A stretch of DNA of 64,000 nt from positions 259,595-323,594 of the forward strand of contig JAYQTA010000002.1 of NCBI GenBank assembly GCA_038147155.1. Direction: 5' to 3'. How positions within the stretch are numbered: position 1 is the stretch's first letter; each line of letters starts with the position of its first letter. A program made the translations under genes and the position numbers. The notes beneath the pieces were generated by a model. That model made no database searches and was not told where the DNA came from. It was given only the letters and a program-made list of their open reading frames with translations. Of the stretch, positions 58,995 to 61,456 are shown piece by piece. This stretch comes from Candidatus Australimonas brisbanensis (lineage in GTDB: Bacteria; Chloroflexota; Dehalococcoidia; Lucifugimonadales; Australimonadaceae).

Positions 58995-59834
58995 CTAGGG
59001 CAGGGTGCTCACCGCGGCGAGCCCGGCGGCGATGGGCGCGGCGACGCCCACCTCCAGCGTCCAGGGCCGCGCAGAGACGGTGCGGTAGCCCATCTTCCCG
59101 CTGGGCTCCTCGGCCGCGATGCGCGCGGCCTCCTGCGCGCTCACGGCGAACACGCCAAGCCCGCCGCCCCAGATGCCGGGGGCCAGCGGTGCGAGTGGCT
59201 CCAGGGGCCCGCAGGACATGAGGCGGGCCGCCATCTCGTTGCTCCGCAGCCATACGAAGTGGTCGAGGCCCGTCTGCGCGTCCTCCTTGGGCCGCGGCGT
59301 GTTCGTCGGCTCCAGGTCCACCAGCATGAGCCGCGCGCCCACCGCCCGCCCCGCCAGTTCATCGCGCGTGAGGCTCACCTGGCCAGGGTTGGGGCTGAAG
59401 CGCGCGCCCGAGGCCTCCAACCGGCGCGAGAGCGCACGACCCACGTAGCAGGCGACGCCCTCGTTCATGGTGTGCGGGCGCACGCTCACCGTTCGCAGGC
59501 GTGCCTGGACGTAGGGATCGGCGGCTGCCGTGGCCTCGGCGTCAACCAGAGAGGAGGCAGCGATGATGCCCAGCGCCGGGACGTTGGCCATGGGCCCCTC
59601 ACCCCCATGCCCCAGCGGGCCATAGCCATACAGGCGCCCCTGCTGTTCCAACTGGTACAGGTGCGCCAGCAGTGCGTGCTCCTGCGCCGGGGTTGGCGCG
59701 GACGCATCGGCCACCGGCTGCGCCTGGAGCAGGTAGAGCTGCGCACGGGCCACGCGAGCGCGCAGCTGCTCACCGGTCAACTCCGTCAGCGGCACATCGT
59801 TGGTGAGCATCCGGGGTGCGTTGGGGCTGGTCAT
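58995..59834 (-). CDS. Tandem YCII-like domain protein
   Basis: Two YciI-like halves (…LAHLYQLEQQGRLYGYGPL… and …HFVWLRSNEMAARLMSCGPLEP…). Its SD (TAGGAGG) contains the stop codon of the upstream MerB-like gene. Confidence 0.7.
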   Translation of the reverse strand: MTSPNAPRMLTNDVPLTELTGEQLRARVARAQLYLLQAQPVADASAPTPAQEHALLAHLYQLEQQGRLYGYGPLGHGGEGPMANVPALGIIAASSLVDAEATAAADPYVQARLRTVSVRPHTMNEGVACYVGRALSRRLEASGARFSPNPGQVSLTRDELAGRAVGARLMLVDLEPTNTPRPKEDAQTGLDHFVWLRSNEMAARLMSCGPLEPLAPLAPGIWGGGLGVFAVSAQEAARIAAEEPSGKMGYRTVSARPWTLEVGVAAPIAAGLAAVSTLP

Positions 59835-59844
59835 GGCAGGCCTC

Positions 59845-60495
59845 CTAAACGGCTTTGAAGTCGCCCCTCGCCCGGCGCGTCATGTACTGGGGGCTGGAGC
59901 GGGCCCTGAATCGCTCTCCGCCGAAGCGCTTGAGCCAGGTGGCCAGCGGCAAAAGGTTCTTCTCGAAGGCGGGGTCGAACCCCTCCCACCGGCGTGCGTG
60001 CTCTTCAGACCTGAAGAGGTTCATGCGCGCTCACTTGTAGGCGAAGTCGCCCGGCGTGCCCAGCTCGGAGTCTGCGTAGCCCACGATCGTCGCGGGCTCC
60101 TGCTCGACCGACTCACCGTCGCGCACCGCGACGTGGATCGGCTCGCCACAGCACAAGCACGCGGTGTCGATGTGGACGGTCTTACCGGGGAAGAGCCAGC
60201 ACACGGCCAGCGCTTCGAGCCCTCACTGGGCGAACCAGCGCTGGTTGCCGTCGATGCTCACCCGATAGGCGTTGGGCAGTGAGGAGAAGGGGGCCAGGGA
60301 GACCAGCACGTCCTGCCCCGGCTCCATCCACCCCGGCAGGCCGGACTCGACCAACTCGTGCAGCAGGCCACGCGCCTGCTCCAGCGGCACGCCCAGCGTG
60401 GAGGCGAGCTCCGTGTAGTGCGGCGCGCGGCCGGTCTCGACGAACGAGCTCATCACCGCGTAGTAGGTCCTATCCAGCAGGTCCAGTTCGCTCAT
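59845..60495 (-). CDS. MerB-like (alkylmercury lyase family) protein with two in-frame UGA codons at the catalytic Cys positions; candidate selenoprotein
   Basis: Single 217-codon frame. ATG 60495 lies 5 nt after GGAGC. TGA at 60225-60223 and 60033-60031. Terminal TAG at 59847-59845. See findings for the alignment to MerB C96/D99/C159. Confidence 0.65.
60001..60018 (-). other. SECIS-like stem-loop 2 (after the second UGA)
   Basis: RNA CUCUUCAG-GU-CUGAAGAG, a perfect 8-nt inverted repeat. Apex CAGGUCUG. The GU lies at +24/+25 from the U of UGA. Confidence 0.6.
60190..60216 (-). other. SECIS-like stem-loop 1 (after the first UGA)
   Basis: RNA GAAGCGCUGGC-CGUGU-GCUGGCUCUUC: 10 pairs (2 G-U) and one C/U mismatch. 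The loop GU lies at +22/+23 counted from the U of UGA. Confidence 0.45.
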
Positions 60496-60572
60496 GACAG
60501 GCTCCGTTCGCGGGGATGCGGCGGGCCGATGGTAAAGCGCCCGTCCGTGGGGCGCAATCGAGAGCGGATGGG

Positions 60573-60612
60573 TTGACAATCGTGTGCGCAGGCTATTTAT
60601 AACCTTCAGGTT
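60573..60612 (+). promoter_or_regulatory. Candidate arsR promoter (TTGACA ... TATTTAT) with a downstream palindrome AACCTtcAGGTT
   Basis: TTGACA at 60573-60578. AT-rich -10 region at 60594-60602. 5-2-5 palindrome at 60601-60612, about 20 nt before GTG 60631. Confidence 0.4.
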
Positions 60613-60630
60613 GATTACCAGGGGTCTCAC

Positions 60631-60981
60631 GTGCCCGCCGACCAACTCTCGCGCACCCTCTCCGCACTGGCCGACCCGACGCGCCGGGCCATGCTGGCGC
60701 GCCTGTCGGCGGGGGAAGCGACGGTGGGCGAACTCGCGGAGCCCTTCTCCATCTCCCAGCCCGCCGTCTCGAAGCACCTGCGGGTGCTGGAGCACGCGGG
60801 GCTGGTCGAACAGGGCAGGCGAGCGCAGTGGCGTCCCTGCCGTCTGCGGGCGGAACCCCTGCGGGAACTTGCCGGTTACCTGGAGCGCTACCGGGCGTTC
60901 TGGGAAGGGAGCCTCGATACGCTCGATGACTATCTCAAGAGCATCGGCGGCGAGGCCCGCCCAGGAGGCAGCGATGAGTGA
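60631..60981 (+). CDS. ArsR/SmtB family transcriptional regulator
   Basis: LSALADPTRRAMLARLSAGEATVGELAEPFSISQPAVSKHLRVLEHAGLV. Confidence 0.85.
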   Translation: MPADQLSRTLSALADPTRRAMLARLSAGEATVGELAEPFSISQPAVSKHLRVLEHAGLVEQGRRAQWRPCRLRAEPLRELAGYLERYRAFWEGSLDTLDDYLKSIGGEARPGGSDE

Positions 60982-61456
60982 GCAGCACACCGGGGAGATC
61001 GTCATCGAGCGCATCTTCGACGCACCGGCAAAGGCCCTCTGGCGGGCCTGGACCGTCCCCGAGGAGTTCGCGCGTTGGTACGGGCCCCAGGGGTTCAGCG
61101 TCCCGGAGTGCCGCATGGACCTGCGCGTGGGCGGCGAGCGCATCTGCTGCATGGCCGCGCCCAACGGCTTCCGCATGTGGATCGGCGGGCTCCTCCAGGA
61201 GGTCACTCCCCACGAGCAGCTGGTGTTCACCGACCAGCCATGCGATGAACACGGGAACCCGGTGCCCCCCTCCCACTACGGCATGCCGGTAGAGGAGTTG
61301 ATGCAGACGTTGGTGGCCATCACATTCGCGCAGAGCGGCGGGCGCACGGCACTAACAGTCCGCCAAAGCGGGTTCACCCCGGAACAGGTCGCCGACGAAC
61401 GAGCGGGCATGGGTTGGAACCAGTCATTGGACAAACTGGCGGCGCTGGTGGGGTGA
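60974..61456 (+). CDS. SRPBCC (AHSA1/START-like) domain protein
   Basis: ATG 60974 lies 5 nt after AGGAGG and overlaps arsR by 8 nt. IVIERIFDAPAKALWRAWTVPEEFARWYGP. Confidence 0.85.
   Translation: MSEQHTGEIVIERIFDAPAKALWRAWTVPEEFARWYGPQGFSVPECRMDLRVGGERICCMAAPNGFRMWIGGLLQEVTPHEQLVFTDQPCDEHGNPVPPSHYGMPVEELMQTLVAITFAQSGGRTALTVRQSGFTPEQVADERAGMGWNQSLDKLAALVG

Follow-up and report, generated by a model that had tools for sequence, protein, structure and literature searches.

In the stretch of DNA analysed here (64 000 nucleotides from Candidatus Australimonas brisbanensis, referred to below as the window), a gene of the MerB family occupies positions 59845–60495 of the minus strand. We saw a single frame of 217 codons, running from an ATG at 60495 to a TAG at 59847–59845, whose sole interruptions are two TGA triplets, one at 60225–60223 (codon 91) and the other at 60033–60031 (codon 155). 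The gene was characterized by translation, Pfam, alignment to PDB structures and AlphaFold2/Foldseek; read through both UGAs it yields a product of 216 aa (amino acids) with the in-frame UGAs as residues U91 and U155. The subject of this analysis is the RNA hairpin immediately downstream of the first UGA. With the U of this UGA counted as nt 1, a scale used throughout for stem coordinates, we consider it highly probable that the hairpin of nt 10–36, with its core at nt 15–31, is a bacterial selenocysteine insertion sequence (SECIS), and that UGA-91 is accordingly a predicted selenocysteine (Sec) codon.

The read-through protein scored 68.4 bits against Pfam model PF03243 (cut-off 27; E = 7.7e-19), which places it in the MerB family. 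Its best relative among solved structures was MerB2 (5C17, E = 9e-9), and in HMMER alignments to MerB2 and MerB residue U91 fell on the catalytic Cys96, E94 on Asp99 and U155 on Cys159. The AlphaFold2 model, built with 45 homologs, had a pLDDT (predicted local distance difference test score) of 94.2 and a pTM (predicted template modelling score) of 0.89, and it was confident across all three ‘fragments’ into which the UGAs divide the frame; when it was compared with the PDB by Foldseek, each of the top 11 matches was to MerB or MerB2 (lowest E = 2e-10, template modelling scores 0.6–0.67). As a confident MerB fold extends over all three segments, the gene is meaningful only with translation of both UGAs. 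The full-length protein reached the cut-off of no NCBIfam model: it scored 29.7 bits with the MerB equivalog NF009710 (cut-off 193), 21.7 with the equivalog NF033555 (cut-off 200) and 39.1 with the SaoL model NF040728 (cut-off 140), and it lacks the C-U dipeptide, the motif at the second site being Y-K-U-A in the window protein and R-U-A-G in the family. The Cys96-Asp99-Cys159 triad of organomercurial lyases is absent as well; the window gene has predicted Sec-Glu-Sec at the triad positions.

An earlier sequence-only reading of the window had described a SECIS-like stem–loop at 60190–60225. The RNA that it quoted is found on the minus strand starting from 60225, UGA GGG CUC GAA GCG CUG GCC GUG UGC UGG CUC UUC CCC, and all the pairs that it listed, together with the CGUGU loop, are present in the ViennaRNA minimum free energy structure, which is identical to the centroid. 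This structure has a lower stem (10–36, 11–35, 12–34 and 13–33), a C14/U32 mismatch, an upper stem (15–31, 16–30, U17.G29, G18.U28, 19–27 and 20–26) and a loop at nt 21–25; the energies computed for nt 15–31, nt 10–36 and nt 4–39 were -5.8, -11.2 and -14.6 kcal/mol, respectively. The GU dinucleotides of the loop are at 22/23 and 24/25, as had been read.

On the minus strand of the window the SECIS core (60195..60211) consists of the 6-bp upper stem GCUGGC/GCUGGC with a tandem G.U and of the loop at 60201–60205, of which G22-U23 (60204–60203) is invariant in UGA homologs. The whole conserved hairpin (60190..60216) has in addition the lower stem GAR/UUY, in which 60214–60216 pair with 60190–60192, and the C14/U32 mismatch. 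The hairpin lies within the interval first given, which covers nt 1–36; the outer GGG/CCC helix included in the same reading extends further, to 60187 (its 3' half is 60187..60189, with the partner at 60220–60222). This helix of G4–6 with C37–39 turned out to be outside the conserved element: only 68% of its cells were paired in the 60 distinct UGA sequences used for pair counts, and the pair 6–37 was not formed in 35 of them. The pair 13–33 was not conserved either (unpaired in 34/60).

A scan of species-representative genomes gave at least 540 related loci; 80 of them were kept, and further loci came from 400 sampled genomes of Chloroflexota. The kept loci, from metagenome-assembled genomes of at least five phyla, belong to Dehalococcoidia and other Chloroflexota, Binatia, ‘delta-proteobacteria’/Desulfobacterota, Methylomirabilota, Entotheonella and Acidimicrobiia. 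We used a set of 87 close homologs, the window gene included, with codons 91 and 155 mapped in all loci. Codon 155 was TGA in 87 of 87; codon 91 was TGA in 64 and a Cys codon (TGC or TGT) in 23, while the combination of TGA-91 with Cys-155 was never seen. More distant MerB-like genes of Chloroflexota were mostly of the Cys/TGA type. Entries of protein databases fell into two classes: full-length proteins of ∼235 aa from JGI (Joint Genome Institute; P0003–P0015), with W at both sites, that is, with TGA read as Trp, and proteins of 154–155 aa with Cys at site 91 that end exactly before site 155 (P0021, P0028, P0059, P0066). Several NCBI entries of the latter kind are named ‘organomercurial lyase’. 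In a single protein, P0016, both sites are Cys.

Purifying selection acts at the RNA level on the stem and on G22, and it is tied to the presence of UGA. Parsimony changes were counted on the protein tree, with 64 TGA rows compared with 23 Cys rows. Ordinary synonymous sites are saturated in the 64 TGA-91 sequences (entropy of 1–2 bits at third positions); at all other third positions within nt 6–66 the TGA rows had 10–28 changes, and at the three third-codon sites of the upper stem, nt 15, 18 and 27, they had 0, 3 and 0. All three changes at nt 18 were from G to A, converting G.U into A-U. The counts at the same three sites in the Cys rows were 4, 7 and 7, similar to the 4–13 changes of their neighbours. 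G22 opens a Val codon; it did not change in TGA rows and changed six times in Cys rows (Val/Ile); the dinucleotide G22-U23 is present in 64/64 TGA homologs, and G22 was lost in 12/23 Cys homologs. An intact stem together with the GU was found in 63/64 TGA forms versus 6/23 Cys forms, the hairpin being decayed in the other 17. The proposal of a SECIS for the first UGA was therefore borne out on the point by which the sequence-only reading would have had it judged, conservation among UGA-containing orthologs: the stem can form in 63/64 of them and its three synonymous sites are frozen.

Codon choice around the loop shows the same constraint. For the Leu of the 5' arm only CUG (58 sequences) and CUA (4) are used, the two CUN codons that retain the 18–28 pair. 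The residue that follows the loop, R, C, G or S, is in every case encoded by an NGC codon, which retains pairs 19–27 and 20–26; this residue is limited to the four amino acids because only the first base of the codon, a loop position, is free. Ala and Leu codons nearby but outside the stem make use of all synonyms. Pair counts agree: the upper stem is paired in ∼100% of the 60 UGA sequences (1/360 cells unpaired), three of its pairs are invariant, and the others change on one side only, always with pairing kept. As to the question whether compensatory changes maintain the stem, the stem is kept; classical double changes were almost absent because its sequence is near-invariant. Lower-stem pairs 10–36, 11–35 and 12–34 form in 58–60 of the 60; the codons concerned are those for Glu and Phe, so the lower stem is also fixed by the protein. 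RNAalifold added a 21–25 pair, formed in 47/60 and with 12 double changes, which is the N1–N2 pair of the published loop pattern.

We also noticed a Syntrophales homolog (L110, 3271–3312) in which CUG to CCG (Leu to Pro) is accompanied by UGG to CGG (Trp to Arg), with both G.U pairs becoming G-C; this double amino-acid change seems to be driven by RNA structure.

Switches between Sec and Cys at codon 91 occurred at least 6–7 times on the tree. Six Cys-91 homologs (L112, L113, L052, L051, L055 and L057) have the intact hairpin with the GU, and they sit on short branches beside Sec forms; in L112 (3271–3312) the sole difference from its Sec sister L067 over 42 nt is TGT in place of TGA. The hairpins of these six look like fossil SECIS elements, hence like traces of recent Sec-to-Cys reversions, an event described as rare in bacteria by a 2026 review. 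In the old Cys clade of Acidimicrobiia the hairpin has been lost.

The genome (1.87 Mb in 18 contigs, 95.6% complete) carries the machinery for selenocysteine: SelB (342 bits, above the cut-off), SelA (506 bits), SelD (387 bits) and a tRNA-Sec with anticodon UCA. The selD gene itself (contig C11:47299-48219, minus strand) has an in-frame TGA in the motif TCAGUAGK; its hairpin differs from both SECIS elements of the MerB-like gene in its greater distance from the UGA (nt 23–41) and in its GGC loop, so there is no single SelB-specific template for comparison. Reassignment of the genetic code was ruled out by the observation that TGA ends ordinary genes of the window too, e.g. the ArsR and AHSA1 open reading frames (ORFs). 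In the Chloroflexota sample SelB was above the cut-off in 294/401 genomes. Among other genomes with a TGA-containing MerB-like homolog it was found in 18/19, the exception being G272 (92% complete), and it was not found in the three genomes whose homolog is without TGA (G154, G229 and G293).

The consensus model of the bacterial SECIS (bSECIS; Zhang and Gladyshev; PMC13188914, Fig. 2A) has a loop of 3–9 nt on a stem of 4–16 bp, a G at loop position 1 or 2 with G or U as the next base (N1-G-[G|U]-N-N2), 16–37 nt between UGA and loop, and an energy of -7.5 kcal/mol or lower; the same spacing rule is given in PMC10778597. The window hairpin conforms to the model in all four respects, with a 5-nt loop on a 6-bp stem, G-U at loop positions 2 and 3, a spacing of 17 nt (nt 4–20), and -11.2 to -14.6 kcal/mol. 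It also follows a UGA that aligns with Cys, in a genome with SelA, SelB, SelD and tRNA-Sec, and it is kept in UGA orthologs and relaxed in Cys orthologs.

Several results speak against the hairpin being a SECIS. Folded as a single sequence, it was no more stable than dinucleotide shuffles (z = +0.25), and among 5000 random TGA trinucleotides of the same genome 6.5% precede a hairpin with consensus bSECIS properties; a tighter geometry (stem ≥6 bp, spacing ≤19 nt, G-U at the loop start), like that of the window hairpin, was seen after 0.2% of the same TGAs. With the single-sequence fold at chance level, significance rests on the comparison of homologs. There, covariation measures for the 60 UGA homologs did not rise above those of column shuffles, since the stem is frozen and does not covary, and for this reason the synonymous-site and parsimony counts given above were used instead. 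A sign test with independent pairs was underpowered: of 6–7 contrasts about three went in the expected direction and none in the opposite one (p ∼ 0.25). An Rfam scan of 59700–60700 gave no match at E up to 10; this says little, as bSECIS elements have hardly any sequence in common and the published model describes their structure. The GGUC tetraloop and bulged U typical of fdhF are also missing from the first hairpin.

A preferred alternative fold had been named in advance as a result that would refute the hairpin, and on this point the outcome was mixed. With downstream sequence only, as for a ribosome standing on the UGA, the hairpin was favoured (upper-stem pairing probability of 0.74–0.96); when 30–60 nt of upstream mRNA were included in naked-RNA folds, the probability fell to ∼0. 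The upstream CCAGCGC pairs with GCGCUGG and beats the hairpin once at least 30 nt of upstream sequence are included. The family behaves similarly, with a median stem pairing probability for UGA homologs of 0.66 in the downstream-only context that drops to 0.01 once 60 nt of upstream sequence are added; Cys homologs had medians of at most 0.01 in every context. One could suppose that SECIS formation could depend on ribosome passage.

As to the competing site itself, the upstream sequence CCAGCGCUGG (Q-R-W codons; window 60237–60246, minus strand) can pair with the SECIS 5' arm at 60207–60213. Many homologs have Lys (AAG) at this place, which abolishes the complementarity.

The tests at chance level give some room to the view that the hairpin is an incidental by-product, without RNA function, of the conserved peptide E-A-L-A-V-x-W-L-F and of GC-rich codon bias. 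Much of both arms is indeed fixed by Trp (UGG), Glu (GAR) and Phe (UUY), the fold does not exceed shuffles, and SECIS-like hairpins are not scarce after random TGAs. Against it, the synonymous sites are frozen only with UGA (0, 3, 0 versus 4, 7, 7), Ala and Leu codons just outside the stem run through all synonyms, and the NGC codon after the loop is kept although its amino acid varies, all this in loci from metagenome-assembled genomes of at least five phyla. We consider this explanation very improbable. Less probable still is that the UGAs are real stops, in which case the locus would be a MerB pseudogene in decay, or a set of three short ORFs, with the hairpin of no relevance. It is true that gene callers split these genes or cut them short, as the ‘organomercurial lyase’ entries of 154–155 aa in NCBI illustrate. 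Against this, the same two TGA positions are found in an otherwise open and conserved frame in 64 loci of several phyla, and the protein segments after each TGA are under strong conservation and make up the rest of a confident MerB fold.

The hairpin might also be conserved as RNA in another role: it could promote near-cognate read-through with Trp or Cys at the UGA, make translation pause or affect the stability of the mRNA. The link from the hairpin to SelB is only inferred, its 5-nt loop without a bulged U differs from fdhF, and its invariance exceeds what pairing needs; e.g. C27 is never U, though a G.U would hold. Nevertheless, conservation that depends on UGA at a codon alternating with Cys is the signature of Sec; the genome has full Sec machinery, geometry and loop GU fit the SECIS model, and the second UGA of the same gene is followed by a textbook GGUC SECIS. 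An alternative role is thus improbable in our view, though the least improbable of the three. The SECIS reading is the one that we retain, and the lower confidence that the first hairpin had initially been given relative to the second is not warranted by the comparative data.

If the hairpin is a SECIS, we would expect the following course of events. As the ribosome nears UGA-91, the C-terminal winged-helix domains of SelB would bind the hairpin apex, i.e. the G22-U23 loop on the GCUGGC/GCUGGC stem, and SelB.GTP.Sec-tRNA(Sec) would thereby be kept at the A site, so that UGA would be read as selenocysteine and not as stop. The separate second SECIS would act likewise at UGA-155. The product would be one MerB-fold protein of 216 aa with selenocysteine at both catalytic positions (Cys96 and Cys159 of MerB). 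SelB binding, Sec insertion and the enzyme substrate are what we infer here.

A broader picture can be drawn, to which we give slightly better than an even chance. Both UGAs would be Sec codons of a MerB-fold carbon–metal lyase with a diselenol active site, and this enzyme would occur across at least five phyla, in hundreds of uncultured species; the first SECIS would be an invariant module, GCUGGC-N5-GCUGGC, with G.U wobbles replacing the bulged U of fdhF, that moves with the gene between phyla, and repeated Sec-to-Cys reversions would leave fossil hairpins behind. Should the SECIS at the first site be a working one, a widespread protein (at least 540 loci) is mis-annotated almost everywhere, and the 2026 catalogue of 119 prokaryotic subfamilies would gain one with Sec also at the nucleophile equivalent to Cys96. 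This would bear on the handling of methylmercury and other organometals by microbes of soil, groundwater, sponges and the deep ocean. The natural series of Sec/Sec, Cys/Sec and Cys/Cys forms would offer a test of the contribution of selenium to carbon–metal bond cleavage. The drift of the post-loop residue among R, C, G and S makes a clear case of RNA dictating protein sequence.

Around the gene, Pfam matches in five flanking ORFs were to tandem YCII, ArsR, AHSA1/SRPBCC, F420H2-dependent quinone reductase and NMT1-like domains; no mer operon was seen among these five. The tandem YCII-domain protein (58995–59834, minus strand) lies immediately downstream, its Shine–Dalgarno sequence overlapping the MerB-like stop; the divergent ArsR regulator (60631–60981, plus strand) is followed by an overlapping AHSA1/SRPBCC gene (60974–61456, plus strand). 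In tblastn searches none of six window neighbours (tandem YCII, ArsR, AHSA1, F420 reductase, NMT1-like and Rieske) recurred beside the 86 homologs, so the YCII/ArsR/AHSA1 context is specific to this genome. At two Dehalococcoidia loci (L045 and L081) the homolog is between a divergent XRE-type helix–turn–helix protein (∼380 aa) and what appear to be ABC-transporter permease and ATPase genes.

For comparison with the best-known bacterial element, the E. coli fdhF sequence was confirmed in 5413 genomes and then folded. Its minimal hairpin spans nt 15–31, with a GGUC loop at 22–25, and its G23-U24 confirms the position of 23/24 that the sequence-only reading had cited. The window hairpin resembles fdhF in having a core at nt 15–31, a GU in the apical loop and a lower stem that extends in the direction of the UGA. 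In place of the GGUC tetraloop and the bulged U17/U18 it has a 5-nt loop, no bulge and a tandem G.U in mid-stem, and its GU is one base closer to the UGA. By analogy, the first hairpin would work like that of fdhF without being a copy of it. The second SECIS (60001..60018, minus strand; nt 16–33 after the second UGA), CUCUUCA-GGUC-UGAAGAG, with its GGUC loop is closer to fdhF than the first. The family consensus of this second element, CUCUUCC-GGUC-GGAAGAG, is near-invariant in 83 distinct sequences; the window has A22-U27 where 82/83 have C22-G27, a compensatory double change with the GGUC loop unchanged.

In comparison with the consensus bSECIS, the window hairpin is similarly located inside the ORF directly after the presumed Sec-UGA, and the N1–N2 pair exists in most family members. 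The differences are that N1 and N2 of the window (C21/U25) are unpaired and that the family stem is near-invariant across phyla: it is a direct repeat, GCUGGC-N5-GCUGGC, which can pair only via two central G.U wobbles. In its protein context, the fold and the placement of the three active-site positions are those of the MerB organomercurial lyase (PF03243; PDB 3F0P, 5C17); predicted Sec-Glu-Sec stands where MerB has Cys-Asp-Cys, and the score is far below the NCBIfam cut-offs for MerB.

The closest known system is SaoL (Haft and Gwadz, bioRxiv 10.1101/2022.07.06.499078; NF040728), a protein of anaerobes encoded in a nine-gene SAO neighbourhood, whose single Sec, part of a C-U dipeptide, aligns with Cys159 and which has Cys at the Cys96 position. 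SaoL was the only MerB, organomercurial lyase or alkylmercury lyase selenoprotein found in the literature, subscription papers and large supplementary tables being outside the coverage; it is also the sole MerB-like entry, with one Sec, in the 2022 and 2026 reviews, where few of the 119 subfamilies have 2–3 Sec. Judging from sequence, the element would therefore be an ordinary bacterial SECIS within a two-Sec subfamily of MerB-like selenoproteins that is absent from accessible catalogues. The family described here shares with SaoL the MerB fold, the predicted Sec at the Cys159 position and the usual fate in databases, where SaoL is cut at that UGA. Unlike SaoL, it has K/R-U instead of C-U and Glu in place of Asp99, and 64 of its 87 members would carry a second Sec, at the Cys96 position, with a SECIS of its own.

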